Positions 19,027 to 62,290 are shown, counted from the stretch's first letter. The stretch is 64,000 bases of DNA from a virus (IMGVR_UViG_3300042375_000684), one strand, 5' to 3'. Notes: generated from the letters alone by a model not told the origin. Made by a program: numbers and translations.

Positions 19027-19034
19027 TATAAATA
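19027..19034 (+). promoter_or_regulatory. T4-type late promoter TATAAATA (fibre unit A)
   Basis: Exact T4 gp55 late consensus in intergenic DNA, 20 nt upstream of ATG 19055. Confidence 0.8.
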
Positions 19035-19054
19035 ACTAAAAAAGGTATAGTTAA

Positions 19055-21232
19055 ATGTCAAAAATCTCTCAATTAGGTCCATTACTTGCAGATGAAACTG
19101 CATCCAGCGACCTTTTTGTTATGGTAAATCTTGTGCAAGGTGACAATGGTACAAAAAATATCACAAGATCTGAACTAGCAAAAGCCTTACAAAAAGAACC
19201 TTTTACTAATATCAATATAACTGGTGGCACTATAAACAATGTCACAATGTCAAATAGTGTAATTAATACTACTTCCATTGCAAGTCCTACTATTAGCAAT
19301 CCAGCAATTACTGGTGGTTCTATTTCCAGTGCTACAATCAATACAAGTACTATAAATAATTCAGCATTAAATCAACCAATATTTGGAAATTTAAATGAAT
19401 ACGCGGCACCGTTAGATGATAATGATGAATTTATAATCCGTGAAGCACAAAATGGATCTACTGTTACAATTAAATTCTCTGATTTAAATGATGAAATTGC
19501 AGAGCAGTTAAAGAAAGTAAACAAAGTGTATGTAGCTGCTGATGCTGACGCCGGCGGCAATGGAAGTTATATGAAACCATATCAAACACTAGAACAAGCA
19601 TTTGCTTTTATGAATTCAATAAATTATCCAATTTCAATTTCAGTAATGCCAGGTAATTACTATACGGAAGGGAATCTTTCACTTCCAGATAAATGTTCAG
19701 TCGTGTCAACAAATGGTCAATATGCAACAAATATACATCTATATGATCCAACTAATGGACCGGGTGTAGATTGGTACTTACATGATCCAATCGAAGAAAA
19801 TTGTTTCTTGGTCGGATCTGGATGCTATATTCAAGGTTTCGGTTTCAGAAATATGAGAGTAGATGATTTTGATGATCCTACAAAAGGATTTGCTGTTGCA
19901 TTCAGACCAGGTGCTACAATACTTAGATCGCCATATATAAAAGATTGCAGTCAGGTAAGTAACTATACAGAAAGAGCTATTGCGGCGCCGTTAGATCCAG
20001 TTAATGCTAATCCTCTTGTTGGTAGAGGTGGCGGTGTTCTTCTTGCAGATCGCGCGGTTTTAGATTATGATACAATTTTCCCATATATGTTAGCTTTTGG
20101 TGCTACACCAAGATCGCCAAATGGGATGGGATATGTTGCAAAGAATGGTGCTGGCATTAACGGTATCGGTTCTATTACAATTTTCCAAAGATGTGCTTTC
20201 TATGCACTTAATGGTGGTCAAGTCACACTCAATAACTCCGGCACACAATTCGGTGATATATCAATGCGGGCCAAAGGTTTTACCTATGTAGTAGAACCAT
20301 ATGAATTAACTGGTGTAGAAAAGAATGATTTAATTTTTGCAAATACAGCAGCAGAAACAATAGATAATGCACGTGACGATATTATAGAAGATATGTGGGA
20401 ACGAATATACAGCGACTATGTTGTAGGTCTTGGATATGAAATAGATGAAGCACTTACTAGACGAGATGCAAACAGTTTTATTCAATCAATTTATTATGAT
20501 TTAATTTCAGCAGGCCAAACAAGTTCTAGAAACTTTGCAGCTTCATTCTTTGACTATAAGGCAGATCACGTATTTCAAGTATTTAATCCATCGGATGAAG
20601 ATGCAATATATATTGGAAGTGTTTCCGCTATTAGCGGTGAAGGCGGTCTTCCAGATGCAAATACAGTAGAACCAAATTCAGCATATATTGTTTATGATCC
20701 GGATGGAGAACCTATAAATATATATAAAGGTGATGTTTATGTTTCCGATGGATCTACTTGGACCAATACTGGTCCTAATGATACAACATTGCTAGATTCA
20801 TTTATATTTGCATACGAAAGAATGAAAATATATATGTTAACATTGACTGCAGATACAGCGCAGCAGGATATGATCTCTACATTAATTAATAACATTATTA
20901 TTAAAACTTTGTTGAATCCATCTAAACTATTATTTGGCAGTCTTATTGAAAGTTTGGCACATCAGTTTAACTTGGCGGGCGCAGGTGTAAATAAAAATGC
21001 GCTGCCACTTAACTTCAGAAGAGTCGGAAAGCCATTGCCTGCTAGCGGATCAGTATTAAAGGAAGATAGTGGTCGAGTAAGATGGTCAGGTGCAGATGAA
21101 TTAAACAACCAGTATTTTGCTGGAGGTTTAAAAATTAACGGTAGGACCGGTCGTCTGGAAGGAAGACCTTTCACATCATCAGTTAGAAGATTAGCAAGAA
21201 GAGCAGCAAATAGTAGGGTATCAATTACATGA
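19055..21232 (+). CDS. Virion structural protein with probable beta-helix domain (paralog of 39360..40985)
   Basis: KVYVA...GNGS..KPYQTLEQA and MPGNY are typical pectin-lyase-fold N-terminal motifs; long shared blocks with 39360..40985 (GSGC, DDPT.GFA, NPLVGRG.GV, GYVAKNGA, TQFGD). Confidence 0.65.
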   Translation: MSKISQLGPLLADETASSDLFVMVNLVQGDNGTKNITRSELAKALQKEPFTNINITGGTINNVTMSNSVINTTSIASPTISNPAITGGSISSATINTSTINNSALNQPIFGNLNEYAAPLDDNDEFIIREAQNGSTVTIKFSDLNDEIAEQLKKVNKVYVAADADAGGNGSYMKPYQTLEQAFAFMNSINYPISISVMPGNYYTEGNLSLPDKCSVVSTNGQYATNIHLYDPTNGPGVDWYLHDPIEENCFLVGSGCYIQGFGFRNMRVDDFDDPTKGFAVAFRPGATILRSPYIKDCSQVSNYTERAIAAPLDPVNANPLVGRGGGVLLADRAVLDYDTIFPYMLAFGATPRSPNGMGYVAKNGAGINGIGSITIFQRCAFYALNGGQVTLNNSGTQFGDISMRAKGFTYVVEPYELTGVEKNDLIFANTAAETIDNARDDIIEDMWERIYSDYVVGLGYEIDEALTRRDANSFIQSIYYDLISAGQTSSRNFAASFFDYKADHVFQVFNPSDEDAIYIGSVSAISGEGGLPDANTVEPNSAYIVYDPDGEPINIYKGDVYVSDGSTWTNTGPNDTTLLDSFIFAYERMKIYMLTLTADTAQQDMISTLINNIIIKTLLNPSKLLFGSLIESLAHQFNLAGAGVNKNALPLNFRRVGKPLPASGSVLKEDSGRVRWSGADELNNQYFAGGLKINGRTGRLEGRPFTSSVRRLARRAANSRVSIT

Positions 21233-21675
21233 CAATAACAAAACTTATAACAAGTCAGGCTCCTGATGCAAAACCCGTCGGAGTTTCTAAATCTATAACT
21301 AGTGCTGGTTGGACTACTTTAATAGAAGTGCCAGAATATGAAATACCCGAAGAAACATTCGGCGGGGGAACCATTACTGTACCAGGTGTTGCTGAAATTA
21401 TCAGCCCTTTACTTATTACTAATATAAGTGCGGCAAGCATCGATGTAGATATACGAATTTATAGAAATACCGATACTACTAACTATTTAATTGCTACACA
21501 ATTACCAATACCAGCATTTGATATTTTGCCACTTCCGTTAAATGGTCAATTTATTGCTAGTGGTGATAAACTAGAAATTACTAGTTCTGCAGCTAGTGGC
21601 ATTAATGTGACAATATCTTATACAGTGGGTCAAGCTGAACAGGATGATGTAGACGGAATAGTGGAGACCGTATAA
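21229..21675 (+). CDS. Small structural partner protein (paralog of 40988..41452)
   Basis: ATGA-coupled to 19055; shares P[ED][YF].[IV]P, PL.G and GD..[EQ] pattern with 40988..41452. Confidence 0.55.
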   Translation: MTITKLITSQAPDAKPVGVSKSITSAGWTTLIEVPEYEIPEETFGGGTITVPGVAEIISPLLITNISAASIDVDIRIYRNTDTTNYLIATQLPIPAFDILPLPLNGQFIASGDKLEITSSAASGINVTISYTVGQAEQDDVDGIVETV

Positions 21676-24600
21676 TGGCTTTTAGGACAATCCGCGGTAA
21701 AACTTCTCTTCTTGGACAAGGATCTAAGTTAGAAACACCAATTAACCTAGACCCTCAAAACTTTGAGGGTGCTATTGTTTATGGTGATGATACATTTGTT
21801 TACTATTCAAATGGAACTCTGTGGATTAGATTAAATGAAGGTCTCCAAGGTTTACAAGGACTTCAGGGTATCCAAGGTTTGCAGGGATTTCAAGGCTTGC
21901 AGGGTATACCTGGTCAAGGATTACAGGGTCTACAAGGTTACCAAGGTATACAAGGTATTCAAGGCCAGGTAGGTCAAGGTATTCAAGGTATCCAGGGACC
22001 TCAAGGCATTCAGGGCGAACAAGGTACACAAGGAATTCAGGGCCCTCAAGGAATTCAGGGCCAACAAGGTATTCAGGGAACTCAAGGTATAATAGGACCT
22101 CAGGGTCTCCAGGGATCACAGGGTGTTCAAGGTAATCAGGGTATTCAGGGTCAGCAAGGTATTCAAGGTTCCACTGGTGAGCAAGGTATTCAGGGTCTTG
22201 TCGGGCAGCAAGGACTTCAAGGTATACAAGGTTCAATAGGAATTCAAGGTATACAGGGTGCTCAAGGCATTCAAGGAACTCAAGGTATTCAAGGAACTCA
22301 GGGAACACAAGGTGAACAGGGTATTCAAGGAACTCAGGGTGAACAAGGTATTCAAGGAATACAGGGTACTATAGGACCACAAGGAATACAAGGAACTCAG
22401 GGGAACCAGGGAACTCAAGGTGTTCAAGGAACTCAGGGGAACCAGGGAACTCAAGGTGTTCAAGGTACACAGGGTATTCAAGGTACTCAAGGGCCACAGG
22501 GTATTCAGGGACTTGTCGGTCAGCAAGGACTTCAAGGTATACAAGGTTCGATAGGAACTCAAGGTATTCAAGGTACACAGGGGACACAGGGTATTCAGGG
22601 GCCACAGGGTACTCAAGGTGTTCAAGGTATCCAAGGATATCAAGGAATTCAGGGATCTCAAGGTATTCAGGGGCCACAGGGTACTCAAGGTGTTCAAGGT
22701 ACTCAAGGTCGCCAAGGTCTTCAAGGAACTTATGGGCCATCATTAACAATTATCGGATCTGTTCTTGATGTTTCAAATTACACACCCCCAGATGATGAAC
22801 AAGATGTTTTAAATACTGCATTTAACACTGCAGTTGCGGGCAATGGTGTGATAGATCAAGCATCTGGCAATCTCTGGGTTTATGATGGTGTTAATTGGAA
22901 CAATGTTGGACAAATTCAAGGTCCACAAGGCGCCCAAGGTACACAGGGTATAACAGGATCAGGAATTCAAGGTATTATTGGAAGCCAAGGTATTCAAGGT
23001 AATCAAGGTATCCAGGGGCCGCAAGGAACTCAAGGAACTCAAGGTATCCAGGGACCACAAGGTATCCAAGGACCTCAGGGTATTCAAGGTTCTATTGGCA
23101 TTCAAGGTATTCAGGGTCCACAAGGTATCCAAGGGACACAGGGTACTCAGGGTATTCAAGGTTCTATTGGTTCCCAAGGTATTCAAGGCTCTATTGGTTT
23201 CCAAGGTATTCAAGGCACTCAGGGTGAACAGGGTGTCCAAGGTATACAAGGTTTGATAGGAACTCAAGGTATTCAGGGACCACAGGGTATTCAAGGAACT
23301 CAAGGCCGACAAGGTATTCAAGGTCTATTTGGTATTCAAGGTAACCAAGGTATTCAGGGTAACCAAGGTATTCAAGGTCTATTTGGTATTCAAGGTATTC
23401 AGGGTATTCAAGGTTCTATTGGTATTCAAGGTATTCAGGGACCACAGGGTATTCAAGGATCTCAAGGTATTCAGGGTATACAAGGATCTATTGGCGCTCA
23501 AGGTATTCAAGGCACTCAAGGTATTCAAGGCACTCAAGGTATTATTGGAAGCCAAGGTATTCAAGGTAATCAAGGCATCCAGGGGCCGCAAGGTATTCAA
23601 GGCGCTCAAGGTATTATTGGAAGCCAAGGTATTCAAGGTACTCAAGGTACTCAAGGTATACAAGGTCAAGTAGGACAGGGTATTCAAGGTTTACAAGGAC
23701 CTCAAGGTCAACAAGGTGTGCAAGGAACTCAGGGCCCGCAAGGAACTCAAGGTGTTCAAGGTCAAATCGGTCAACAAGGTATCCAAGGCTCTCAGGGTGT
23801 TCAAGGTATTCAAGGCATTCTTGGTAATCAAGGTATTCAAGGTATTTCAGGATTTGTCGGAGCAGTAGGTTCTCAAGGTGTCCAAGGTATTCAAGGTCTA
23901 TTTGGTAATCAAGGTATTCAAGGCCGTCAAGGTATTATAGGGCCAATAGGTGTTCAAGGTCTAAGAGGCGCTCAAGGTGTCCAAGGAACTCAAGGAACTC
24001 AGGGTGTTCAAGGTTTACAAGGTCTTGTTGGCCAAGGTATTCAGGGACTTCAAGGTGTTCAAGGTACATTCGGACCTGCGCTTACTGTTATTGGAAGTAT
24101 TAGTGTAGCAAGTGATGCGGCACTTAAAATTGCGTTTCCAAGTGCAGTTTCAGGTAATGCTGTAATTGAAACCAGTACCGGTAAATTATGGGTTTATGAT
24201 GGTGTAAATTGGTCTGAAGTAGGTCAATTCGTTGGAGCTCAAGGTATTCAGGGGCGCCAAGGTGTTCAAGGCATTCAGGGACTTGTTGGTCAAGGCATAC
24301 AAGGTATTCAGGGACCTCAAGGTACTCAAGGTCTACAAGGTGTCCAAGGAATTCAAGGTTCAACTGGGTCTCAAGGTAGACAAGGTGTCCAAGGTATACA
24401 AGGTCTTGTGGGCCAAGGCCTACAGGGGCTTCAAGGTCGACAAGGTATACAGGGTGTTCCTGGGTCATTTGCCGCTCAAGGTATCCAGGGTGTTCAAGGT
24501 ATATCCGGTCAAAGTTTCAATCAAGGCCTACAAGGTGTTCAGGGTACACAAGGCCGTCAAGGTTTCCAGGGAATATCGGGTCAAAGTTTTAACCAAGGTG

Positions 24601-25739
24601 TTCAAGGTGTTCAAGGGCAATCTGGTTCCGCAGTATTACAAGGTTTCCAGGGACTTCAAGGTACCGATGGTTTGTTTGCAGGACAAGGTATTCAAGGTCG
24701 CCAAGGTGTCCAAGGCCAATCTGGATCTGCTGTTGCTCAAGGTTTCCAGGGACTTCAAGGTACTTCAGGCTCTGCTGTTGCACAAGGTTATCAAGGTATA
24801 CAAGGACAGTCTGGATCTGCTGTAGCCCAAGGTTTCCAGGGACTTCAAGGTACTTCAGGGCAAAGTTTCAACCAAGGCTTACAAGGTGTTCAAGGACAAT
24901 CTGGTAATGCGGTTGCTCAAGGTTTCCAAGGACTTCAAGGTACTTCTGGTCAAAGCTTTAATCAAGGTCTCCAAGGTATTCAGGGTGTTCAGGGCGGCGG
25001 AGGTGTTATTGGTAACCAAGGTCTACAAGGTCGCCAAGGTGTCCAAGGAACTATTGGTGGTCAAGGTATTCAAGGTCTTTCAGGTGTAAGTTTCAACCAA
25101 GGTCTCCAAGGTCTACAAGGTCGCCAAGGTGTACAAGGAACTATTGGTGGTCAAGGTCTTTCAGGTGTTGGTGCTAACGGTTCACAGGGTATCCAAGGTA
25201 TCCAAGGTATTCAAGGTCGCCAAGGTATTCAGGGTACTTTAGGTCTGCAAGGTATAACAGGAGTTGGGTCACAAGGTATTCAAGGGATCTTTGGTATCCA
25301 AGGTATTCAAGGTACTACAGGTGTTACTGCCGACCAAACAGTAAATACTTCGAGTAACGTACGATTTAACAGTCTTGGGGTAGGAACTACCGCATCTGGA
25401 ACTGCAGGTGAAATTAGAGCAACTAATAATATTACTGCTTATTATTCCGATGATAGACTTAAAACTAGACTTGGGTTAATTGAAAATGCACTTGAAAAAG
25501 TTAAAACACTTGATGGTTTCTATTATGAAGCAAATGAAATTGCTCAGAGAATGGGTTACAAACCAATAAGAGAAGTCGGTATTTCTGCTCAGAAAGTGAA
25601 AGAAATTTTACCAGAAATTGTTGCTCCAGCTCCAATTGATGAAAGATATCTGACTGTAAGATATGAAAAAATAGTTCCACTTCTAATTGAAGCAATTAAA
25701 GAACTATCTGTAAAAATTGAAAGTCTGGAAGGGAAATAA
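21675..25739 (+). CDS. Collagen-like (Gly-X-Gln) fibre with C-terminal S74 chaperone
   Basis: Long GIQ/GTQ/GLQ/GVQ triplet runs, two small non-collagen knobs, C-terminal YSDDRLK...GISAQKVKEILPEIV...[15 protein letters not shown]. Confidence 0.85.
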   Translation: MAFRTIRGKTSLLGQGSKLETPINLDPQNFEGAIVYGDDTFVYYSNGTLWIRLNEGLQGLQGLQGIQGLQGFQGLQGIPGQGLQGLQGYQGIQGIQGQVGQGIQGIQGPQGIQGEQGTQGIQGPQGIQGQQGIQGTQGIIGPQGLQGSQGVQGNQGIQGQQGIQGSTGEQGIQGLVGQQGLQGIQGSIGIQGIQGAQGIQGTQGIQGTQGTQGEQGIQGTQGEQGIQGIQGTIGPQGIQGTQGNQGTQGVQGTQGNQGTQGVQGTQGIQGTQGPQGIQGLVGQQGLQGIQGSIGTQGIQGTQGTQGIQGPQGTQGVQGIQGYQGIQGSQGIQGPQGTQGVQGTQGRQGLQGTYGPSLTIIGSVLDVSNYTPPDDEQDVLNTAFNTAVAGNGVIDQASGNLWVYDGVNWNNVGQIQGPQGAQGTQGITGSGIQGIIGSQGIQGNQGIQGPQGTQGTQGIQGPQGIQGPQGIQGSIGIQGIQGPQGIQGTQGTQGIQGSIGSQGIQGSIGFQGIQGTQGEQGVQGIQGLIGTQGIQGPQGIQGTQGRQGIQGLFGIQGNQGIQGNQGIQGLFGIQGIQGIQGSIGIQGIQGPQGIQGSQGIQGIQGSIGAQGIQGTQGIQGTQGIIGSQGIQGNQGIQGPQGIQGAQGIIGSQGIQGTQGTQGIQGQVGQGIQGLQGPQGQQGVQGTQGPQGTQGVQGQIGQQGIQGSQGVQGIQGILGNQGIQGISGFVGAVGSQGVQGIQGLFGNQGIQGRQGIIGPIGVQGLRGAQGVQGTQGTQGVQGLQGLVGQGIQGLQGVQGTFGPALTVIGSISVASDAALKIAFPSAVSGNAVIETSTGKLWVYDGVNWSEVGQFVGAQGIQGRQGVQGIQGLVGQGIQGIQGPQGTQGLQGVQGIQGSTGSQGRQGVQGIQGLVGQGLQGLQGRQGIQGVPGSFAAQGIQGVQGISGQSFNQGLQGVQGTQGRQGFQGISGQSFNQGVQGVQGQSGSAVLQGFQGLQGTDGLFAGQGIQGRQGVQGQSGSAVAQGFQGLQGTSGSAVAQGYQGIQGQSGSAVAQGFQGLQGTSGQSFNQGLQGVQGQSGNAVAQGFQGLQGTSGQSFNQGLQGIQGVQGGGGVIGNQGLQGRQGVQGTIGGQGIQGLSGVSFNQGLQGLQGRQGVQGTIGGQGLSGVGANGSQGIQGIQGIQGRQGIQGTLGLQGITGVGSQGIQGIFGIQGIQGTTGVTADQTVNTSSNVRFNSLGVGTTASGTAGEIRATNNITAYYSDDRLKTRLGLIENALEKVKTLDGFYYEANEIAQRMGYKPIREVGISAQKVKEILPEIVAPAPIDERYLTVRYEKIVPLLIEAIKELSVKIESLEGK
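21840..25322 (+). repeat. Coding tandem repeat: Gly-X-Gln triplets (CAAGGT/CAGGG units)
   Basis: 9-nt periodicity visible throughout, interrupted at about 22735-22915 and 24070-24235 by two homologous knob domains. Confidence 0.95.
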
Positions 25740-25742
25740 GTA

Positions 25743-26783
25743 ATGACCCTTCCACTATTTCCTAACGGAATATCAACAAATCAAATGAATGTCGAGTTGG
25801 CAAGAACTGACACGACAACTCTGACTATGAATGAAAATATTGTTCGGGATATGCTGGCAGGAGATACGCCAAATCTTGCGGCAGCACCATATGCAAATTT
25901 ATCACAAATATCATTTTCGGATGGACACGGAAAAGATGCACCATTTAGAGCATCAATTTCTACTAATGCAAATGATGTTAATGTTAGAACATATTTAATA
26001 GGACTTGGATGGGATCAAGCTAAAAGAGTTGTATTAACAATAGATTCGGGTATTACGGTATCAACAACCAGTTCAGGTGCAGGTTTTTATGCCCTTACAG
26101 TTTCTGGCTCATTTCCTAAAGGTATTCGTATTGTTAATAACGGTACTATAGCAGGAAAAGGCGGTCCTGGTGGAAATGGTGGTGGTTCTCCAGCAACAAA
26201 TTCAACATCATTACGAGGTACTGCTGGAGGTTCTGGAGGTGCTGCATTATATGCTAGCACTGCGGTGACTGTTATTAATAATGGTACTATAGCTGGTGGT
26301 GGCGGCGGCGGCGGCGGCAGTGCTGGTGTATATGCTGTTATGACTGCAAATGCTAAAAAGTTATGGGCCGGGGGTCCTGGCGGTGGAGGTGGTGCAGGCG
26401 GCACTGGAGGTACTGGAGGTACTCGCGGCACAACAACATGGCAATCTCCTATTATTCCTGCAATAACATATCCGACAAATGGTTCTAGTGGCACTGCCAC
26501 AGCAGGAGGAAGTGGTGGTGATGGTGGTAACTATGCATTTAATGATGGATCCGGTGGTAGCGGCGGGTTGATCTGGTCAAATCCACCAAATGGTGGTAGC
26601 GGTGGGGCTTTGGGCAGTGCCGGAACAAGTGGAAATTCTGCAGGCGGGGCATTTGGTTCCGCGACTATTGTTAATGGATCTGCAGGCGGCGCTGGTGGAG
26701 CTGCAGGTCTTGCAGTTAAAGGGTCAAATTATGTTACTTTTTCTACATTAGGAACTGTAGCAGGCGGGACAGAAACAGTTTAA
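25743..26783 (+). CDS. Glycine-rich fibre-tip adhesin (gp38-like architecture)
   Basis: MTLP...ISTNQMNVEL N-terminus, VLTIDSGITV, IVNNGTIAGKGG and poly-Gly loops; directly after an S74 fibre. Confidence 0.6.
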   Translation: MTLPLFPNGISTNQMNVELARTDTTTLTMNENIVRDMLAGDTPNLAAAPYANLSQISFSDGHGKDAPFRASISTNANDVNVRTYLIGLGWDQAKRVVLTIDSGITVSTTSSGAGFYALTVSGSFPKGIRIVNNGTIAGKGGPGGNGGGSPATNSTSLRGTAGGSGGAALYASTAVTVINNGTIAGGGGGGGGSAGVYAVMTANAKKLWAGGPGGGGGAGGTGGTGGTRGTTTWQSPIIPAITYPTNGSSGTATAGGSGGDGGNYAFNDGSGGSGGLIWSNPPNGGSGGALGSAGTSGNSAGGAFGSATIVNGSAGGAGGAAGLAVKGSNYVTFSTLGTVAGGTETV

Positions 26784-27236: not shown

Positions 27237-27244
27237 TATAAATA
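27237..27244 (+). promoter_or_regulatory. T4-type late promoter TATAAATA (RCC1 module)
   Basis: Exact consensus immediately after the stop of 26796..27236. Confidence 0.75.
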
Positions 27245-27280
27245 CTTGTATAGCCGAGTACTCATGAAAGGGGCGCGAAG

Positions 27281-27535: not shown

Positions 27536-27536
27536 T

Positions 27537-30193: not shown

Positions 30194-30210
30194 TATAAGG
30201 ATTAAGTAAT

Positions 30211-30849: not shown

Positions 30850-30854
30850 GTATA

Positions 30855-49613: not shown

Positions 49614-49640
49614 CGCAATTTGACCATAATAAAAGGATAA

Positions 49641-51118: not shown

Positions 51119-51126
51119 TATAAATA
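51119..51126 (+). promoter_or_regulatory. T4-type late promoter TATAAATA heading glyco cluster B
   Basis: Exact consensus in the gap before 51161; SD GAGGA follows. Confidence 0.8.
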
Positions 51127-55233: not shown

Positions 55234-55236
55234 ATA
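55229..55236 (+). promoter_or_regulatory. T4-type late promoter TATAAATA overlapping a stop codon
   Basis: Exact consensus 33 nt upstream of ATG 55269. Confidence 0.65.
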
Positions 55237-55268
55237 TCACAATATAATTGAATAGAGGTGACTATACT

Positions 55269-56315
55269 ATGGAAATCAAAAAAGGTTTTAACGAAGTAGA
55301 ATCAAAGTATAAGTTCGGTAATAATGAATCATTTACCAAATATGTACTTGAACGAGGTGGCAAGATAAAGCCTCTCATTATCCCATCAGAACTAACTAAT
55401 GGAACTGGATTAATGAATCCGACCATTTATAGATTGCCTGATGGTAGATTAATTGTCAATATCCGACACGTAAATTATACATTCTATCATTCCGAACGAA
55501 AACTATTGCAGCACCAATGGGGGCCACTTACTTATTTACACCCTGAAAATGATATGCATTTACGAACAACTAATTATTACTGTGAATTGGATAATGATCT
55601 TAATATCACTGGATTCTGTAAAATAGATACATCAAAATTTGACACATATGAGCCAATGTGGGATTTTGTTGGTCTCGAAGATGTCCGTCTTGTACTTTGG
55701 AATGAAAAACTTTATGCAACAGGTGTTCGTAGAGATACAACTACAAATGGTCAGGGTAGAATGGAGTTATCAGAACTTCAATACATTGAAGGTAAAATGA
55801 CTGAAGTTTCTAGAGTCAGAATACCACCGCCAAAAGATCCAAATTCATATTGTGAAAAGAATTGGATGCCAGTTATTGATGAAGACTATACGTATGTAAA
55901 ATGGTCTAATCCAACAGAGGTAGTCAAAGTAGATCCTATTGATGCTAAATCAACTACAATAAAATTAAGTGAATACTTTCCAGCACCAAACGATTTTAGA
56001 GGTGGAACACAAGTAATTCCACTTGGTATTGATGGGCAAAGAATAGCTCTTGTTCATGAAGTTGATTTATTTAGAAGTGAACACGATAGAAAAGATGCAG
56101 TTTATAGACATCGCTTTATAGTCTGGGATAAAGATTGGAATATTGTAAAGTATACAAATGATTTTTCAATGATGAATGGACACGTAGAATTTGCAGTTGG
56201 AATGTGTCATCATAATAATGGTGAAGTTTTAATTACATTTGGTTTTCAAGATAATGCTGCATATATTTTGCAAACTAATATTCAGGACATAATTGATTTT
56301 ATAAATGATAATTGA
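55269..56315 (+). CDS. Five-bladed beta-propeller glycoside hydrolase/phosphorylase-like protein (GH43/GH130-like fold)
   Basis: LMNPTI, GLEDVRL, CEKNWMP, FRGGT, VEFAVG motifs; ATG 55269 follows GAGGTG SD. Confidence 0.6.
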   Translation: MEIKKGFNEVESKYKFGNNESFTKYVLERGGKIKPLIIPSELTNGTGLMNPTIYRLPDGRLIVNIRHVNYTFYHSERKLLQHQWGPLTYLHPENDMHLRTTNYYCELDNDLNITGFCKIDTSKFDTYEPMWDFVGLEDVRLVLWNEKLYATGVRRDTTTNGQGRMELSELQYIEGKMTEVSRVRIPPPKDPNSYCEKNWMPVIDEDYTYVKWSNPTEVVKVDPIDAKSTTIKLSEYFPAPNDFRGGTQVIPLGIDGQRIALVHEVDLFRSEHDRKDAVYRHRFIVWDKDWNIVKYTNDFSMMNGHVEFAVGMCHHNNGEVLITFGFQDNAAYILQTNIQDIIDFINDN

Positions 56316-57132
56316 TTGCTTTTCTTATTTTAATGAGGAAGAACTTCTAGAATTAAGATTAAGACTACTATATAATAAAGTAGATAAATTCATAATTACA
56401 GAAGCAGACCACACTCATAGCGGTTTACCGAAACAAATGACACTTTTAAACACTCTCAAGAGAATGGATATTTCTCTTGAGAAAATCTGGTATGTTCCAG
56501 TTATGTTGCCTTCACTTGCACAAGAACCGAATAATTGGGTACGTGAGCGTATGCAAAGAGATGCAGCTACATCATATATTAGAGAAACAGACATTGCATT
56601 TATTGGTGATTGTGATGAGATTTTAAATCCGGCACATATAGAATATATGAAATACATCAAAGAAAATCACCCAAATGAGATTTTGAGAACACCACTTGCA
56701 TATTTGTGTGGTAGAGCAGATTTAAGAGTTTATAATCAAAATGAAGAACAGATGCAATGGAATACCCCATTTTTAGTTTCTGGACAACAATTAAAACATT
56801 ATACACTTTCAGAAATTCGTGAAGATCATGCTTGGGGTTTTCATAGATTGCAAGATATTTTTATAACAGAAGATGGTTATTTAAAAGAACTTGGTTGGCA
56901 TTTTACTTGGATGGGAAATCAAGAAAGATTAAAAACAAAAATTAAAAATTATAGCCACGCTGGTGAACATACTCTAGATGAAAACTTTAGTGCATCAGAA
57001 AATTCATTTGATCCACTCGGAAGAAAAGATCATATATTAAAAAGATATAATATAAACAATTTACCGAACTTGATATTAGAAAATAACAGAATTAGAAAGT
57101 ATCTATTACCAGATGAAAATACTTTTTCATGA
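56305..57132 (+). CDS. GT17-like (beta-1,4-GlcNAc transferase family) glycosyltransferase
   Basis: IIDCFSYFNE.ELLELRL....VDKFIITEADHTHSGLPK, ERMQRD, GDCDEI, GWHFTW. Confidence 0.8.
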   Translation: MIIDCFSYFNEEELLELRLRLLYNKVDKFIITEADHTHSGLPKQMTLLNTLKRMDISLEKIWYVPVMLPSLAQEPNNWVRERMQRDAATSYIRETDIAFIGDCDEILNPAHIEYMKYIKENHPNEILRTPLAYLCGRADLRVYNQNEEQMQWNTPFLVSGQQLKHYTLSEIREDHAWGFHRLQDIFITEDGYLKELGWHFTWMGNQERLKTKIKNYSHAGEHTLDENFSASENSFDPLGRKDHILKRYNINNLPNLILENNRIRKYLLPDENTFS

Positions 57133-58072
57133 AAATCAATTAACAGAAAGAGGCACTTCTGTTGCAATGTTTGATTATGCATATTATGCAAGAGAACTAT
57201 TAGATATAGAACCAATAATTACTTATAGAAATGAAAATAGTAAACCACAAGCAATTCAAAGGTTTAAAAATAATTTTGAAGTATTTTCATATGACACATT
57301 TGATGATGTAGAAACTTACATATCTAAAAATTCAATAGATGCTTTCTATGCTATTAAATATGGATATCATGATGGAATAGTTTCTTCTAATACTAAAAAT
57401 TTAATTCATTCTGTATTCTGCAAACATAGAGAATATATGCACGGTGAAAGATATGCTGTAGTTTCTGAATGGCAATCACATTTTAATGACATACCTTATG
57501 TACCACATATTTTAAATCTTTATGATACCACCGAAACTTTGAGAGATAATCTTAATATACCAAAAGATGCACTGGTAATAGGACGTCATGGTGGTTTTGA
57601 TACATTTAATATTGATTTTGTAATTGATAGCATTAAAGAGATATTAGATAAAAGATCAGATATTTGGTTTTTATTCTTAAATACCGAAAAGAAATTAGAG
57701 CATCAAAGAGTCATATATCTAGATGCAACAGTAGATTTAAAAGAAAAAACAAAATTTATTAACACATGTGACGCAATGATACATGCCAGAGATTACGGTG
57801 AGACCTTCGGTCTTTCAGTTTTAGAATTTGCGGCAAAAGATAAACCTATTATCTCATATGATAATGAATATCTACAGACAAATCACCAATTAGGCGGAAG
57901 AAACCATTTTCTATTTTTACAAGATCATTGTTATAAATATTCACACAAAGGAGATTTAGATAACATATTTCTTAATATTGAAAGAAATACTTCGTTTAAT
58001 ACGAGTTATCTATTGGATAAATTTTCTCCGCAATCTGTAATGAAATTATTTGAAGAAAGATTTTTAGTATGA
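57113..58072 (+). CDS. GT-B (GT4-like) glycosyltransferase
   Basis: ERGTSVAMFDYA, GRHGG.DTF, CDAMIHAR..GETFGLSVLEF. Confidence 0.75.
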   Translation: MKILFHENQLTERGTSVAMFDYAYYARELLDIEPIITYRNENSKPQAIQRFKNNFEVFSYDTFDDVETYISKNSIDAFYAIKYGYHDGIVSSNTKNLIHSVFCKHREYMHGERYAVVSEWQSHFNDIPYVPHILNLYDTTETLRDNLNIPKDALVIGRHGGFDTFNIDFVIDSIKEILDKRSDIWFLFLNTEKKLEHQRVIYLDATVDLKEKTKFINTCDAMIHARDYGETFGLSVLEFAAKDKPIISYDNEYLQTNHQLGGRNHFLFLQDHCYKYSHKGDLDNIFLNIERNTSFNTSYLLDKFSPQSVMKLFEERFLV

Positions 58073-58689
58073 GTCAATATCCAAATTTACAAATAGATAG
58101 CCCTATTGAGACATATGAAATTATGACTCAACACATAAAGACACTGAAAGGTGTTGAGGGACTAAGCTGTGAAGTAGGACTTCGCCGAGGCGGGGGAACT
58201 AAAGTAATACTCGATTCATTTATGGAAAATGAAGATAAACGTGTTCATATCTGCATGGACCCATATGGAAATATTATTTACAATGATATAGTAGGTCCAC
58301 ATCGAAGTGACTATACAGATGATATGAAAAATGAGACACTTGCAGAACTATACCGATATGCATTTGATAATAGAATTAATATTCTTTTCTTTAATATGGA
58401 AGACTCTGAATTTTATAGAAGATTTACAGATGGTGTTCCTGTTTACGATCAAGAAAAGAAAATGCTGAATACATATTGTTTTGTCCATATTGACGGTCAG
58501 CATGATATAGAATCAGTCAGATTAGCCGCAAATTTCTTTATTCCAAGAATGTCAATTAGAGGGCTTCTTGTTTTTGATAACACTGATCATTATGATCATT
58601 CACCTATACACAATTTAATGCTTAATAACAAGTTTATTATGGTTGACGATGTATTGAATAGAAAACTATATAAGAGAGTTTTGATATGA
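58069..58689 (+). CDS. Class I methyltransferase (TylF/Methyltransf_24-like)
   Basis: CEVGLRRGGG motif I, FVHIDGQHD, GLLVFDN. Confidence 0.72.
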   Translation: MSQYPNLQIDSPIETYEIMTQHIKTLKGVEGLSCEVGLRRGGGTKVILDSFMENEDKRVHICMDPYGNIIYNDIVGPHRSDYTDDMKNETLAELYRYAFDNRINILFFNMEDSEFYRRFTDGVPVYDQEKKMLNTYCFVHIDGQHDIESVRLAANFFIPRMSIRGLLVFDNTDHYDHSPIHNLMLNNKFIMVDDVLNRKLYKRVLI

Positions 58690-59939
58690 TAGAAGATTTA
58701 CTTAATCAATTTGCTTTAAATCCAAATGATCCAGAGATTAATTTTAAAATGGCAAGATACTATGATGAAATAGGTCAGACTGCATCTGCTGTTTCCTATT
58801 ATATTAGAACAGCTGAAAGAACAGAAGATCTTCTTCTGCGATATGAATGTCTATTGCATGGTGCAAATTGCTTTGAGCGACAAGGTACTCGTAGATTTAC
58901 TGTAAAAGGTATGCTTCAACAGGCAATTACTATTTTACCGAAAAGACCTGAGGCATATTATATATTAAGTAGACTATATGAATACAATGATACAAATGAG
59001 GGTAGATACTTAGACTCATATACAATGTGTTCTATAGCACTTCAAGTTTGTGATTTTAATAATAAAGAATTGAGAGTACCAGTAAATTATCCAGGTAAAT
59101 ATGCTCTATTATTTCAAAAGGGCGTAATGGGTTGGTGGAATGGTTTACAAGAAGAAACAAAATCAATTCTTTTGGATCTTCATATGAATTGGGACATGAA
59201 TGATGAATTTGCAAATTCAGTTAAGAATAATTTAGTAAATATGAATGCATTTGCTTCCAAATCATTGACAACATACTCTAAATCTAAATTATATAAATTG
59301 CGCTGGAAATTTGAAAGTCTTGAAGATATAGAACAGAATTATTCTGAAGCATATCAAGATATGTTTGTTCTTACTGTATTAAATGGTAAAAAGAATGGAA
59401 CATATGTAGAAATTGGATCAGGTCATCCTACATATGGAAATAATAGTTATCTATTGGAAAAAGATTTTGGCTGGACTGGAATGTCAGTTGATATAAGTGA
59501 AGAATTTATAGCAAAACATAATGCAGAAAGAAAACATACAGCAATATTAAAAGATGCAACAACAATAAATTATGGTACTTATTTTAAGTCACTCGGTTTT
59601 GGTACTGAAATAGATTACTTACAGATTGATGTTGATCCAGCTGAAATATCACTGAAAGTTCTTTACACAATCCCGTTTGAAACTTACAAGTTTTCAGTAA
59701 TTACGTTCGAACACGACCATTACGCAGACCCAAAAAGTAATGTCAGAGAAAAGGCAAGACAATTCTTAGAATCATTTGGTTATGTTCTTGCGGTGTCAAA
59801 TATCTCACCAGATGAAAATAGACCATATGAAGATTGGTTTGTACATAGAGATGAATATGAAAAAGTAAAACATCTAGTTGATACTTCAGATAAAACAAAA
59901 TGTGCAGAAAACTTTATGTTTGGTGCCTATAATGAATAA
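58686..59939 (+). CDS. TPR domain + FkbM-like methyltransferase fusion
   Basis: TPR-like helices (PNDPEINF.MARYY, PKRPEAYYILSRLY); YSEAYQDMFV, YVEIGSG, IDYLQIDVDP, VITFEHD. Confidence 0.75.
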   Translation: MIEDLLNQFALNPNDPEINFKMARYYDEIGQTASAVSYYIRTAERTEDLLLRYECLLHGANCFERQGTRRFTVKGMLQQAITILPKRPEAYYILSRLYEYNDTNEGRYLDSYTMCSIALQVCDFNNKELRVPVNYPGKYALLFQKGVMGWWNGLQEETKSILLDLHMNWDMNDEFANSVKNNLVNMNAFASKSLTTYSKSKLYKLRWKFESLEDIEQNYSEAYQDMFVLTVLNGKKNGTYVEIGSGHPTYGNNSYLLEKDFGWTGMSVDISEEFIAKHNAERKHTAILKDATTINYGTYFKSLGFGTEIDYLQIDVDPAEISLKVLYTIPFETYKFSVITFEHDHYADPKSNVREKARQFLESFGYVLAVSNISPDENRPYEDWFVHRDEYEKVKHLVDTSDKTKCAENFMFGAYNE

Positions 59940-60717
59940 GATACCTGTGATAGGAGCTGCTGTTGTAAATAGCAGTTTCTGGGTTTCAAGATTACTTTTA
60001 AGTGTTGACTATCCAGTGGAAAATTTTGTAATTATAAACAATAATGGACGTGGTATTATTGATGAAGAATTAAACAATATAGTCAAGTTAAAGCACCGCT
60101 ATATAGATAAAATAAAAGTAGTTCATATGCCTGCTAATATAGGATGTGCAGGTGCTTGGAATTTAATTATTAAGTGTTATATGAATGCAGCATATTGGAT
60201 AATTGCTAATGATGATGTTGCTTTTAAACCAGGATTATTAAAAGAATTTAATGATATCATGATAAATGATTCAGAAATTGGAACAATACATCCAAACCCT
60301 GGTGATTTTGAAATTGGTGCGTGGGATTTATTTGCAATACACGAAAGAGCAGTCAAGAAACTAGGGTTATTTGACGAAAATACATATCCCGCATATTGTG
60401 AAGATGCAGATTATATTATGAAAATGGTGAACAAAGGTGTCAAGAAAATTGTAGGATTACAATCAGGTTATTTACATGGTACTGGAGATGCCGAAGCATA
60501 CTATGAACATGGAAGACAAACTGAAAAATCTGACGAGAATTTAGCACAAATATTACAAATTTCTAATGCACTTAATATAGAATATCTTACCCGCAAATGG
60601 GGTCCTGGTTGGAGAACTGTATGTCCACATGTACTACCCTTTGCTGGAGAAGAACGAGATATTAGTTATTCACTATATGATCTCGAATTTGTCAGAAGAA
60701 AACATACAGGATTTTAA
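59932..60717 (+). CDS. GT2-like glycosyltransferase
   Basis: NIGCAGAWN, IIANDDVAF, GLFDENTYPAYCEDADY; ATG 59932. Confidence 0.78.
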   Translation: MNKIPVIGAAVVNSSFWVSRLLLSVDYPVENFVIINNNGRGIIDEELNNIVKLKHRYIDKIKVVHMPANIGCAGAWNLIIKCYMNAAYWIIANDDVAFKPGLLKEFNDIMINDSEIGTIHPNPGDFEIGAWDLFAIHERAVKKLGLFDENTYPAYCEDADYIMKMVNKGVKKIVGLQSGYLHGTGDAEAYYEHGRQTEKSDENLAQILQISNALNIEYLTRKWGPGWRTVCPHVLPFAGEERDISYSLYDLEFVRRKHTGF

Positions 60718-60718
60718 A

Positions 60719-61456
60719 ATGTTACCAATTTCAGTAGGAATACTTTCGTGGAACTCACCTGAAGTTCTAGAAGAGACAATAAAAACTTATATAATGAATG
60801 GACTTTTTAATCTAGTTTCAGATATAACAATTCTATTTCAAGAAGTTACTAAAGAGGATAAAGCACTTGCTAAAAAATATGGCATTCCTTTCATTGGTTT
60901 AGATACAAATGTAGGCATTGGTAAAGCAATGCAAATACTAGCCGAACAAGCAACAGAAGAATATTTTCTATTTCTTGAAAATGATTGGCAATTAATTGAA
61001 ACTAAAGAAACTACAAAGAAAAGATTAATTGGATCCATAGATCTTTTAGAAGAAGATTATCAGTGCATAAGACTAAGATCTAGACGAACACCTGGATATC
61101 CTTTATTTTCAGAAGTTTATAGGGATAATGAATTAAATCATTACGATGAAAATACTGGTTTAATTTCTCCGCATCTCTTTGATTGTATTCATTGGATTGA
61201 AGAACCTGATCTAAAATTTGAGCAAATTAGAAAGCATAAATATCACTACATTACAACATCGCGTTGGTCTAATTGGACCAATAATCCGTGTTTATTCAAG
61301 ACAGAATTTATTCCAGATATTATTGATCCATTTATCCAAGATAATCTTCTTGAACCATCAATTTCAAGATGGTGGGCAGAACAGAATTTTAATGTTGCAT
61401 GGGGTGAAGGTTTATTTAAACATGTTGATTTTAAGAAATATGGAGATATATATTAA
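60719..61456 (+). CDS. GT-A (GT2-like) glycosyltransferase
   Basis: ISVGILSWN, NVGIGKA, FLFLENDW, WTNNPCL; ATG 60719. Confidence 0.68.
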   Translation: MLPISVGILSWNSPEVLEETIKTYIMNGLFNLVSDITILFQEVTKEDKALAKKYGIPFIGLDTNVGIGKAMQILAEQATEEYFLFLENDWQLIETKETTKKRLIGSIDLLEEDYQCIRLRSRRTPGYPLFSEVYRDNELNHYDENTGLISPHLFDCIHWIEEPDLKFEQIRKHKYHYITTSRWSNWTNNPCLFKTEFIPDIIDPFIQDNLLEPSISRWWAEQNFNVAWGEGLFKHVDFKKYGDIY

Positions 61457-62232
61457 TGCATAAAGTAATTCTTGTAACTGGTGGTTTCGATCCTCTACAT
61501 AGTGGACATATTGCATATTTTGAAGAAGCAAAGAAATTAGGTAATACATTGGTAGTCGGTGTCAATAGCGATGAATGGTTATCTCGTAAAAAAGGCCAAC
61601 CATTTATGGATGTGAATGAGAGAATGTCAATCATAAAACATCTATCCATGGTAGACGCTGCTATTATATTTGATGATTCTGATGGGACTGCAAAAGCAGC
61701 AATAAGATATTGTTTAAATGCATATCCAGAGTCCGAAATTATCTTTGCAAATGGTGGTGATAGAACAAAAGCAAATATACCTGAAATGGAACTTGTTTGT
61801 GATGATTCCGAAACAAAGAGACTAAAATATGTTTTTGGTATCGGTGGAACACATAAAATGAATTCCAGTAGTAAAATACTGACCGAATGGAAGACACCAA
61901 AAACAGAACGAAAGTGGGGTTATTATAGAGTATTACACTCTGATGGACCATCACTCAAAGTCAAAGAGTTAGTTGTGGAACCCGGGAAATCATTGAGTGT
62001 TCAGAAACACAATCTAAGAAGTGAACATTGGATAGTTTCTGAAGGTATTGCGACAGTAAATTATGGTGACCATCCCGCCGCTCTTTCAACTACAAAATTG
62101 GAAAAACACGATGAGATTCATATCTCAGTTGGCAAATGGCATCAACTTGTAAATGAGACGAACAATGAAGTCCGAATTGTTGAAATCCAATTCGGAGTTA
62201 ATTGTATCGAGGAAGATATTATTCGGATTTGA
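61456..62232 (+). CDS. Cytidylyltransferase-family nucleotidyltransferase fused to a ManC/PMI-type cupin
   Basis: TGGFDPLHSGH (HxGH), FANGGDR; ERKWGYYRVL, LSVQKHNLRSEHW, WHQL. Confidence 0.82.
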   Translation: MHKVILVTGGFDPLHSGHIAYFEEAKKLGNTLVVGVNSDEWLSRKKGQPFMDVNERMSIIKHLSMVDAAIIFDDSDGTAKAAIRYCLNAYPESEIIFANGGDRTKANIPEMELVCDDSETKRLKYVFGIGGTHKMNSSSKILTEWKTPKTERKWGYYRVLHSDGPSLKVKELVVEPGKSLSVQKHNLRSEHWIVSEGIATVNYGDHPAALSTTKLEKHDEIHISVGKWHQLVNETNNEVRIVEIQFGVNCIEEDIIRI

Positions 62233-62248
62233 TTCTGTTTTATTTTCA

Positions 62249-62262
62249 TGGATGATAATCCA
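62249..62262. promoter_or_regulatory. 14-bp near-palindrome TGGATGATAATCCA (operator candidate, copy 2)
   Basis: One mismatch from the palindrome at 38617-38630, same position relative to the -10 box. Confidence 0.62.
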
Positions 62263-62290
62263 ATTATACCATACATGTAGAACCTGTCAA
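62263..62290 (-). promoter_or_regulatory. Antisense sigma70-type promoter TTGACA-N16-TATAAT with extended -10 (copy 2)
   Basis: Minus strand reads TTGACA ggttctacatgtatgg TATAAT; points into the nucleotidyltransferase-cupin gene. Confidence 0.75.

Follow-up and report, generated by a model that had tools for sequence, protein, structure and literature searches.

What two sets of sugar-modifying enzymes do among the tail-fibre genes of a phage, and whose surface they modify, is the question raised by a locus spanning 17.5–62.3 kb of the window (the whole stretch of 64,000 nucleotides analysed, from IMGVR_UViG_3300042375_000684, an uncultured lake-water T4-like myovirus). This fibre block contains two tandem fibre modules, an RCC1-propeller module and two unrelated enzyme cassettes at the module boundaries (Table 1), and is best explained, we believe with moderate confidence, as the end of the late structural block that varies and serves host recognition. 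The initial annotation had described two parallel fibre and glycan-tailoring units, each operon being dedicated to decorating its own fibre set. Our analysis retains the general idea of phage-encoded late glycosylation of virion proteins and abandons this operon-per-fibre specificity.

Table 1. Features of the fibre block, with positions in the window.
Position	Strand	Feature	Basis
17688–18929	+	Short fibre protein, S74-like C-terminus	Behind late promoter 17564; many tail-fibre PHROGs
19027–19034	+	TATAAATA late-promoter motif, head of unit A	Motif search
19055–21232	+	Unit A tailspike-like protein bhA, paralogue of 39360	phrog_29288; pairwise alignment
21229–21675	+	Unit A partner protein, distant homologue of 40988	Pairwise and profile-profile
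21675–25739	+	Collagen-like fibre A, C-terminal S74 chaperone	Collagen, Peptidase_S74
25743–26783	+	Gly-rich adhesin-like protein A	phrog_2056 'tail fiber protein; host specificity'
26796–27236	+	Tail-fibre assembly chaperone A	PF16778, phrog_4912
27237–32342	+	Late operon: promoter 27237, small protein 27281–27535, RCC1, DUF4376	Domain matches, motif, PHROG
27537–28862, 28859–30193, 30855–32342	+	RCC1 propellers	Domain matches
30211–30849	+	DUF4376 protein	Domain match
32347–32354	+	TATAAATA, head of sugar operon A	Motif search
32386–32931	+	SAM methyltransferase (Methyltransf_11)	Pfam; directly upstream of TPR-GT9 gene in 22/22 loci
32928–34262	+	TPR (residues 1–165) and GT9-fold glycosyltransferase	AF2, Foldseek
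34255–35025	+	PAPS-type sulfotransferase	Sulfotransfer_3, Sulfotransfer_1
35025–35804	+	GT2 glycosyltransferase	Pfam, bit score just at threshold
35771–36343	+	Conserved protein, invariant HxE...H; possibly 2OG/Fe oxygenase-like (lead only)	Conservation
36283–37465	+	Split HldE: heptose-1-P adenylyltransferase 36283–36750, heptose-7-P kinase 36695–37465	TIGR02199, TIGR02198
37452–37811	+	Small cupin (WbuC- or PMI-like), possible sugar-phosphate isomerase	Family matches
37808–38626	+	ADP-glyceromanno-heptose 6-epimerase-like SDR (HldD-like)	TIGR02197
38616–38658	-	Antisense sigma70 promoter (TTGACA-N16-TGgTATAAT) and palindrome, directed back into operon A	12/12 promoter match
38682–39295	+	Late promoters 38682 and 39288 flanking small genes 38704–39051 (phrog_1084) and 39054–39287	Motif search, PHROG match
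39360–40985	+	Unit B tailspike-like protein bhB	Pairwise alignment, PHROG, AF2/Foldseek
40988–41452	+	Unit B partner protein	Profile-profile
41458–47001	+	Collagen-like fibre B, C-terminal S74 chaperone	Collagen, Peptidase_S74
46998–49454	+	Four small fibre-associated genes, including short collagen-like 48070 and LamG-like 48738	Domain/pairwise matches
49641–50720	+	Gly-rich adhesin-like protein B	Gly_rich_2
50723–51103	+	Chaperone B	PF16778, phrog_4912
51119–51126	+	TATAAATA, head of sugar operon B	Motif search
51161–54532	+	1123-aa triple glycosyltransferase (GT4-type, GT2, GT2/21-type)	Domain matches
54529–62232	+	Rest of operon B, nine genes	Pfam/NCBIfam matches
54529	+	FkbM methyltransferase	Operon B
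55248	+	GH130-like lead, no assigned family	Operon B
56305	+	GT17-like	Operon B
57113	+	GT4	Operon B
58069	+	Methyltransferase	Operon B
58686	+	TPR and FkbM methyltransferase	Operon B
59878	+	GT2	Operon B
60629	+	GT2	Operon B
61456	+	Nucleotidyltransferase and PMI-cupin	Operon B
62248–62290	-	Antisense sigma70 promoter, second copy	12/12 promoter match
62312–63102	+	Late promoter 62312 and head-tail adaptor (gp13-like)	phrog_211; right border of fibre block

Each fibre module consists of a tailspike-like protein, a partner, a collagen fibre ending in S74, a Gly-rich adhesin and a Tfa-type chaperone. The paralogy proposed for the tailspike-like proteins was borne out by alignment (19055 vs 39360, 38.7% identity over 359 aa, E 5.5e-73), as was, in the form of distant homology, that of the partners (21229 vs 40988, 19% over 138 aa, E 3e-4 pairwise; hhalign probability 97.7%, E 1.5e-12 in profile-profile comparison). 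The Gly-rich proteins 25743 and 49641 have no significant pairwise similarity. The beta-helix fold attributed to the tailspike-like pair is tentative: the AF2 model of 39360 has a pLDDT of 64.6, and the matches that dominate its Foldseek list, to beta-helix tailspikes, a carrageenase and pectin esterases, are weak (E >= 6e-4, TM ~0.2). The giant collagen fibres are as first described, 21675 and 41458 both combining long Gly-X-Y runs with a C-terminal S74 domain (30.9 and 33.1 bits, respectively; Peptidase_S74 cut-off, 22 bits). Of the 323 triplets of fibre A, 78% have Gln at Y; fibre B has 368, X being mostly S/F/D and Y being Thr in 45%. The chaperones 26796 and 50723 share both their family matches (PF16778 and phrog_4912).

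The two-unit layout is real, but the earlier description fits it in part only. Unit A has an additional late operon, absent from the earlier description, whose three RCC1 propellers are 53–56% identical to one another, and unit B has six additional small genes (38704, 39054, 46998, 47386, 48070 and 48738). As annotated, each sugar operon combines glycosyltransferases (GTs) and methyltransferases with a cupin and a cytidylyltransferase-like nucleotidyltransferase, but the two operons are not paralogous, and their nucleotidyltransferase domains alone align (37% over 70 aa).

The motif TATAAATA occurs 15 times in the window, 15/15 on the + strand. Eight copies (17564, 19027, 27237, 32347, 38682, 39288, 51119 and 62312) lie wholly in intergenic DNA, which makes up 1.6% of the window (binomial p ~3e-11), and stand 15–117 nt ahead of gene starts on the coding strand, an arrangement that at motif level is that of T4-like late units and upholds the late promoters predicted at the heads of the units and sugar operons. 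The same antisense element does stand behind both sugar operons: 38616–38642 and 62248–62274 agree at 26/27 nt, each reads on the minus strand as a consensus sigma70 promoter, and these are the sole 12/12 promoter matches in their regions. The position of this promoter at the cassette end is kept in relatives. Late expression of the sugar operons is suggested by the motifs heading both of them here, but late control of the triple-GT gene is not universal: a consensus sigma70 promoter immediately precedes it in three relatives, and exact TATAAATA is found at this gene in only 3/33, both of which count against late virion glycosylation by cassette B.

Cassette A (32386–38626) carries much of a predicted ADP-heptose pathway. 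The HldC-like adenylyltransferase (E 1.2e-32) and HldA-like kinase (E 5e-39) both score below NCBIfam equivalog cut-offs, as does the HldD-like SDR (E 1.8e-61, 208 bits vs a cut-off of 274.6). These scores count against a heptose-based reading, and so do two further results: neither GmhA nor GmhB was recognised within the window, and heptose genes are missing within 10 kb in 9/22 relatives. The PMI/WbuC-type cupin could be the isomerase of the ADP-L-glycero-D-manno-heptose pathway.

In the same cassette, 32928 encodes a putative protein heptosyltransferase. Its AF2 model (pLDDT 90.9) has a helical TPR domain at residues 1–165 and a GT-B domain at 185–444, the soluble architecture of OGT, SPY and FlmG. 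The best fold matches of the GT domain are GT9 heptosyltransferases (WaaC, WaaF and the protein heptosyltransferase TibC), and over the whole chain Foldseek ranks SPY and OGT first, both of them protein O-glycosyltransferases with TPR domains. Membership of GT9 is fold-based: the sequence has no Pfam match to PF01075 (Glyco_transf_9) at E < 0.01, and a PDB profile search returned TPR proteins only. From its context, the HldC-, HldA- and HldD-like genes of the operon, ADP-heptose is the predicted donor. The TPR domain may bind a protein substrate, as such a domain can in FlmG, a soluble bacterial OGT (PMC7591256). However, TPR also occurs in a capsule polymerase (8qoy, among the Foldseek matches of 32928) and is therefore no proof of a protein substrate.

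Relatives show the enzyme sets to be movable accessory blocks. Across 22 distinct related loci that have a TPR-GT9 gene, RCC1 genes lie within 8 kb of it in 22/22, whereas fibre-A genes lie within 10 kb in 0/22; cassette A thus travels with RCC1 proteins and not with the collagen fibre assigned to it. The methyltransferase and the HxE..H protein are near TPR-GT9 in all 22 loci and the sulfotransferase in 19, the enzyme genes of divergent relatives are interleaved with RCC1 genes, and the isolated cyanophage S-SRM01 has an S74 fibre-RCC1-DUF4376-RCC1-TPR-GT9...RCC1-sulfotransferase set at 30–40% identity. Presence and absence agree: the complete genome G004 has neither RCC1 nor TPR-GT9, and G006 and G007 have both. 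Judged from these comparisons, cassette A represents a widespread type of phage cassette that RCC1 propeller genes constantly accompany; we found no published description of an RCC1, GT9 and sulfotransferase cassette in the literature. Cassette B (51161–62232) has a minimal conserved form in relatives, triple-GT and FkbM just before the neck gene.

We propose that the two enzyme sets probably decorate the phage's own attachment proteins, an idea that fits the late promoters with antisense early-type promoters, the lack of membrane segments and of export or lipid-carrier genes in the operons, the TPR and GT9-fold plan, and the continued location of the cassettes inside the fibre modules of many relatives. 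Late in infection, the TPR domain of 32928 would recruit a virion protein in the cytoplasm, most probably the RCC1 propellers, and the GT9 domain would transfer to it heptose from ADP-heptose, supplied by the cassette's own HldA/HldC/cupin/HldD line. The glycan could then be extended, sulfated or methylated ahead of assembly. Cassette B would build a different, probably methylated, oligosaccharide on another acceptor, and either glycan might affect adsorption or stability. Taken as a whole, late cytoplasmic glycosylation of virion proteins by two accessory cassettes has, in our view, about an even chance of being correct.

An unlikely alternative to which we still give some weight is that the cassettes act on the LPS, EPS or cell wall of the infected host, as cyanophage 'LPS / cell-wall modification' clusters are usually taken to do; this could block superinfection or stop progeny sticking to debris. 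The ADP-heptose, GT9, GT2, GT4 and sulfotransferase functions are ones typically found in envelope-glycan synthesis, the sigma70-type promoter before triple-GT in some relatives is compatible with this role, and the TPR domain is not decisive. Large GT/NDP-sugar epimerase/nucleotidyltransferase clusters occur in the T4-like aquatic phages P-SSM2, S-SCSM1 and S-SCSM2R (PMC12801897). Such cyanomyovirus clusters for 'LPS / cell-wall synthesis and modification' are read as host-surface modification, as in P-SSM2 and S-SCSM2R (PMC12801897), or as DNA modification, and RCC1/fibre linkage has not been reported for them; their enzymes are mostly non-homologous to those found here, S-SCSM2R giving a weak GT2 match to triple-GT. 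Against this alternative, no glyco enzyme of either operon has a hydrophobic segment (no 19-residue window with KD >= 1.6) except the doubtful TTG-start N-terminus of 59878, and neither operon has a Pfam/NCBIfam match to a polyprenyl-phosphate transferase, flippase, ABC exporter or polymerase; the Wzx/Wzy or ABC-dependent membrane proteins of an envelope-polysaccharide cluster were thus recognised in neither. Both cassettes here also have late promoters and antisense early promoters, and envelope remodelling offers no obvious explanation for the tight, interleaved linkage of cassette A and RCC1 inside fibre modules across distant phages.

The strict model, in which each operon is dedicated to the fibre set of its own unit and the phage has two glycan coats, each specific to one fibre set, is improbable. 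In the window each operon follows one fibre set, the operons are chemically different, and fibre B is Thr-rich at Y; in L013–L024 triple-GT lies directly beside the unit-B beta-helix (tailspike) gene, in divergent orientation. However, this claim fails the co-occurrence test put forward with it: fibre-A genes are near TPR-GT9 in none of the 22 loci, and the layouts of relatives separate operons from fibres. Units A and B are adjacent with no sugar operon between them in L002 and L021, the closest relative (L034/L085, genes 77–85% identical) has both enzyme sets merged in one block that follows the unit-B adhesin and an RCC1 gene, L005-type relatives have cassette A directly upstream of unit B, and L014 keeps cassette A genes with a non-collagen fibre. 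Triple-GT presence is unrelated to the Ser/Thr content of nearby collagens (p = 0.69), and one complete 218-kb relative lacks TPR-GT9, triple-GT and RCC1.

That the GTs decorate modified bases in the phage's DNA, in the manner of T-even phages, is hardly credible: DNA is glycosylated in T4-like phages, and diverse virus GTs do the same (Pyle et al., 2024, as cited in PMC12619734), but these genes sit inside a late fibre block behind late-promoter motifs, include a sulfotransferase, FkbM methyltransferases and TPR fusions, are linked to RCC1 genes, and have no base-modification genes nearby in the window.

Parts of the proposed system have known counterparts. The bacterial autotransporter heptosyltransferases (BAHT) of TibC/TibA and Aah/AIDA-I (PDB 4rap, 4rb4), a group marked by an iron-finger motif, dodecameric assembly and modification of Ser in an adhesin, offer fold similarity to 32928 at only 8–9% identity; TibC lacks the N-terminal TPR, the acceptor of TibC/Aah is a beta-helix passenger whereas the presumed acceptor here is an RCC1 propeller, and the phage cassette, in which the activity of 32928 is a prediction, also has sulfo- and methyltransferases. 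FlmG of Caulobacter crescentus is likewise soluble, with an N-terminal TPR domain that binds its protein substrate and a C-terminal GT-B, and modifies paralogous structural proteins in the cytoplasm (PMC7591256); its donor is pseudaminic acid and its acceptor flagellin. The likeness is one of architecture. WaaC and WaaF (CAZy GT9; PDB 1psw, 2h1h) have no TPR and work at the membrane, with lipid A-Kdo as acceptor, and the Pfam GT9 model misses 32928. In mycobacteriophages, which are siphoviruses infecting hosts of Gram-positive type, phage GTs were shown experimentally to decorate the phage's own structural proteins, namely at capsid and tail-tube C-termini (Freeman et al., 2023, PMC10527164, as reported in PMC12801897 and PMC12619734). 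A nucleotide-heptose pathway, a sulfotransferase, RCC1 proteins and TPR-GT9 are not known from that system, and function here is predicted.

A more detailed version of the virion-protein reading, which we consider rather doubtful, is that the appendages carry two distinct self-made glycans: a sulfated and/or methylated heptose-based one on RCC1, added by the TPR-guided GT9 with a phage ADP-heptose pathway in which the cupin replaces GmhA, and a methylated oligosaccharide made by triple-GT and FkbM on another fibre protein, e.g. the Thr-rich collagen fibre. If true, protein sulfo-heptosylation of a virus particle would be a modification undescribed for any phage. Virus-encoded cytoplasmic glycan assembly on virion proteins is known from chloroviruses (the multidomain GT/methyltransferase A064R of PBCV-1) and mimivirus (fibril glycans), and Bacillus BclA is a glycosylated collagen-like, Thr-rich repeat protein of the spore. 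The likeness, by description only, lies in multidomain GT and methyltransferase enzymes and Thr-rich collagen repeats, and these are eukaryotic viruses or a bacterial spore, not phages.

Upstream of the region described earlier, 17688–18929 is a third fibre of the block, its C-terminus being 41% identical to that of 41458 and 36% to that of 21675.

Our data demonstrate that the conserved partner of sugar operon A (cassette A) is a set of RCC1 propeller genes and not the collagen fibre of unit A. We retrieved 131 related loci from IMG/VR and mapped the window genes onto them; the three search queries were the tailspike gene of unit B, the triple glycosyltransferase of operon B (triple-GT) and the TPR and GT9-fold glycosyltransferase of operon A (TPR-GT9). 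Of the distinct loci containing TPR-GT9, 22 extend 3 kb or more upstream of it, and all 22 carry an RCC1 gene and an HxE..H protein within 8 kb of TPR-GT9 and a methyltransferase adjoining it (no more than 1 kb upstream); a sulfotransferase lies within 3 kb in 19/22 and heptose-pathway genes within 10 kb in 13/22, while triple-GT is found within 10 kb in 1/22 and fibre-A genes in 0/22. RCC1 genes are intermixed with enzyme genes in the more divergent loci. Two relatives, G006 and G007, encode TPR-GT9 and many RCC1 genes, and a third one of 218 kb (G004), complete according to CheckV, lacks RCC1 and TPR-GT9 as well as a true triple-GT.

The initial annotation proposed that each sugar operon decorates its own fibre set, yielding two glycan coats. 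This model is not supported and should be dropped: it fails the co-occurrence check across related genomes that was proposed with it, the arrangement varying among relatives. In L002 and L021, no sugar operon separates fibre units A and B, which lie side by side. In the L005 group, unit B is directly downstream of cassette A, as in the window, and RCC1 genes are upstream of cassette A (L089-L096). L034/L085 share 77-85% identity with the window genes and have a single merged enzyme block, the gene order being unit-B adhesin, chaperone, RCC1, cassette A, triple-GT, FkbM, neck gene. In L013-L024, triple-GT is encoded on the opposite strand and adjoins the tailspike gene of unit B, and in many loci the cassette-B genes are triple-GT and FkbM only, immediately before the neck gene. 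The paired fibre units resemble an ancestral tandem layout, into which the sugar cassettes seem to have been inserted as accessories where modules meet. In L046, L068, L074 and L075, the triple-GT homologue is in two pieces with an opposite-strand HNH endonuclease gene between them, so a homing endonuclease may have inserted itself and split the gene.

In S-SRM01, a freshwater cyanophage of the Kyanoviridae, the core set of RCC1, TPR-GT9 and sulfotransferase genes adjoins the distal tail-fibre gene, in the order S74-type fibre, RCC1, DUF4376, RCC1, TPR-GT9, five other genes, RCC1 and sulfotransferase. Its TPR-GT9 is 30% identical to the window protein (E 1e-65), and its genome paper does not discuss the set. 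This isolated phage offers a concrete test system.

The earlier observation was largely right, and the two fibre units follow a common plan. The tailspike-like proteins 19055 (725 aa) and 39360 (541 aa) are clearly paralogous, with 38.7% identity over 359 aa (E 5.5e-73), their small partners are distantly homologous by hhalign (97.7%, E 1.5e-12), both giant proteins combine collagen-like repeats with a C-terminal Peptidase_S74 domain, and both chaperones match PF16778 and phrog_4912. The Gly-rich proteins have no detectable similarity to each other. The initial annotation missed a separate late operon in unit A, which encodes three RCC1 beta-propellers (53-56% identity among themselves), a DUF4376 protein and one small protein, and six additional small genes in unit B. 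The sole common part of the sugar operons is a domain of the nucleotidyltransferases, with 37% identity over 70 aa. The collagen triplets are Gly-X-Gln in fibre A (Gln at Y in 78%) and GFT/GSK/GDI in fibre B (Thr at Y in 45%). In G006 (the DTR-bounded, 202-kb contig of L088), about ten RCC1-repeat genes lie in 1-10000 and 196000-202272, some within open frames of 834-1776 aa, so that propellers are parts of giant fibre-like proteins in some relatives. The AF2 model of 39360 is moderate (pLDDT 64.6), with weak matches to beta-helix tailspike-type folds; residues about 320-442 form a confidently modelled helical domain that Foldseek matches to phycobiliprotein/globin-like folds (target TM about 0.55, E 0.01-0.05); this is probably just a helical bundle.

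Features of the two sugar operons and their surroundings in the window
Feature	Coordinates	Strand	Remarks
1786-aa protein	12153-17513	+	phrog_358 (unknown function); between gp8-like baseplate gene and first fibre gene
RCC1 operon	27237-32342	+	within unit A
Operon A	32386-38626	+
Methyltransf_11 enzyme		+	operon A
TPR-GT9	32928-34262	+	operon A; 444 aa, no Pfam match
Sulfotransferase		+	operon A
GT2		+	operon A
Unknown protein	35771 (start)	+	operon A; 190 aa
Split HldE-like enzymes		+	operon A; adenylyltransferase and kinase
Small cupin	37452-37811	+	operon A; PMI-type
HldD-like epimerase		+	operon A
Gap 5' of unit-B adhesin gene	49455-49640		186 nt
Operon B	51161-62232	+
Triple-GT	51161-54532	+	operon B; 1123 aa
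FkbM methyltransferase		+	operon B
Unknown protein	55248 (start)	+	operon B; 355 aa; Atlas lead GH130 (32% of one cluster)
GT17-like enzyme		+	operon B
GT4		+	operon B
Methyltransf_24 enzyme		+	operon B
TPR+FkbM protein		+	operon B
Two GT2s		+	operon B
Cytidylyltransferase-like domain fused to PMI-type cupin	61456-62232	+	operon B
HNH homing endonuclease gene	63106-63786	+	phrog_314; directly after gp13-like adaptor gene
Intergenic TATAAATA copies include	19027, 27237, 32347, 38682, 39288, 51119, 62312	+	T4-like late-promoter motif
Antisense sigma70 promoters	38616-38658 and 62248-62290	minus	aimed into 3' ends of late operons

Protein 55248 has no match in Pfam, PHROG or NCBIfam; phmmer searches of 32928 (TPR-GT9), 55248 and 19055 against PDB sequences gave no useful match, and TPR proteins were the only PDB matches of a 32928 profile. 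A scan of bacterial and archaeal genomes with two strict peptide patterns confirmed no TPR-GT9 relatives, which is not a sign of their absence. An invariant HxE...H and an Atlas match (DUF6445 on 14% of members) point to 35771 as a candidate oxygenase. Homology to the S-SRM01 '2OG-Fe(II) oxygenase' gp339 was rejected (hhalign probability 0.1%), and when 16 homologues were scanned with Pfam the only match was a weak one to APS_kinase/KTI12, in one fused form, so this reading stays a lead. Family members in L099:15127-16047 and L105:9538-10512, and similar 307-327-aa forms, are extended at the C-terminus by a P-loop domain that matches APS_kinase/KTI12 weakly (E about 0.05); if real, this fusion would provide PAPS for the adjoining sulfotransferase. 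The PMI-type cupins of both operons adjoin RfaE-II-type nucleotidyltransferases, being fused in operon B. GmhA and GmhB were not recognised in the window, and the cupin may serve instead as a non-orthologous isomerase of sedoheptulose-7-P or another sugar phosphate.

Based on the combination of a TPR-guided GT9-fold enzyme, genes for heptose activation, the solubility of the enzymes and the late-promoter motifs, we infer that cytoplasmic modification of phage attachment proteins is the best-supported mechanism. The attachment proteins would be the acceptors, with the RCC1 propellers as putative virion components; both donor and acceptor of TPR-GT9 are predictions. Its predicted action resembles the heptosylation of adhesins by TibC/Aah, and its TPR domain could act as in FlmG, which captures its substrate through TPRs (PMC7591256). 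TPR domains occur in capsule polymerases too and so do not prove a protein substrate. Thr-rich collagen was considered as the substrate of cassette B; across loci, triple-GT presence shows no association with Ser/Thr-rich collagens (p = 0.69 and 0.39), in a crude test with ±10 kb windows and ascertainment bias.

Annotators routinely assign the large sugar-gene clusters of aquatic T4-like phages to modification of host LPS. Remodelling of the host envelope, the standard reading of cyanophage sugar clusters (PMC12801897), is the main rival for the cassettes described here. It is weakened by the linkage of cassette A to RCC1 genes and by the lack of any recognised membrane or export component: we recognised no flippase, polymerase, exporter or lipid-carrier transferase in operons A and B, and their enzymes have no hydrophobic segment, barring the doubtful N-terminus of 59878. 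DNA modification by the sugar enzymes was set aside on context.

To our knowledge, virion glycosylation has been demonstrated in only a few phages (mycobacteriophages). The general idea of virion-protein glycosylation is plausible, and phage virion glycosylation is treated as already known in the passages of PMC12801897 and PMC12619734 that cite Freeman et al., 2023. Full-text literature searches found no paper connecting RCC1, sulfotransferase and glycosyltransferase in phages, and no description of a phage ADP-heptose pathway for virion proteins. The window combines an RCC1/GT9/sulfotransferase cassette with a heptose supply line (GmhA/GmhB not recognised) and a second, unrelated cassette. 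Together with its relatives, it suggests that soluble enzymes, among them methyltransferases, a sulfotransferase, a pathway for the donor sugar and a TPR-guided protein of heptosyltransferase fold, form a portable kit with a genetic link to the attachment proteins of the phage itself. If true, abundant lake and marine phages would bear chemically modified receptor-binding proteins; this would influence their stability and host range as well as grazing and immune recognition, and would complicate structure-based host prediction.

The window derives from an uncultured, recurrent freshwater T4-like myovirus, based on T4-type baseplate genes in its first 17.5 kb (gp5-, gp25-, gp6-, gp7- and gp8-like by PHROGs), the absence of DNA-level megablast matches to the whole region among GenBank phages, near-identical DNA in 24 lake-water metagenome runs dated 2020-2025, and related contigs of up to 202-250 kb. 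Its gp6 homologue is 31-37% identical to gp6 of Sinorhizobium phiM12, Caulobacter Cr30, Pelagibacter HTVC008M and cyanophages.

All window genes are on the + strand, as are all 15 copies of TATAAATA, eight of which fall in the intergenic 1.6% of the window, 15-117 nt 5' of gene starts (p about 3e-11). As initially annotated, the motif heads both sugar operons and the same antisense element ends both units, a 27-nt stretch that closes each sugar operon on its 3' side, with one mismatch between the copies. Among the long intergenic gaps, only the one 5' of the unit-B adhesin gene lacks the motif. On the minus strand, the 27-nt element is a perfect extended -10 sigma70 promoter. Many relatives have minus-strand TTGACA-N15-18-TATAAT at comparable boundaries, after HldD, triple-GT or the neck gene (22-53 nt past them in L004-L012, L014, L046, L068, L069, L035 and L036), and none of 132 related loci contains an exact match to the 17-nt core of the element; position is thus kept and sequence differs. 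Since no minus-strand ORF lies downstream, the likely product of these promoters is early antisense RNA directed at late genes. Intrinsic terminators at the sugar-operon ends were not convincing, with counts partly at shuffle level. Finally, three distinct relatives (L033:1196, L041:926, L056:9949; also L057, L062) have a perfect coding-strand TTGACA-N16/17-TATAAT 34-52 nt 5' of the triple-GT start, so late expression of triple-GT is not universal and its timing may differ between phages.
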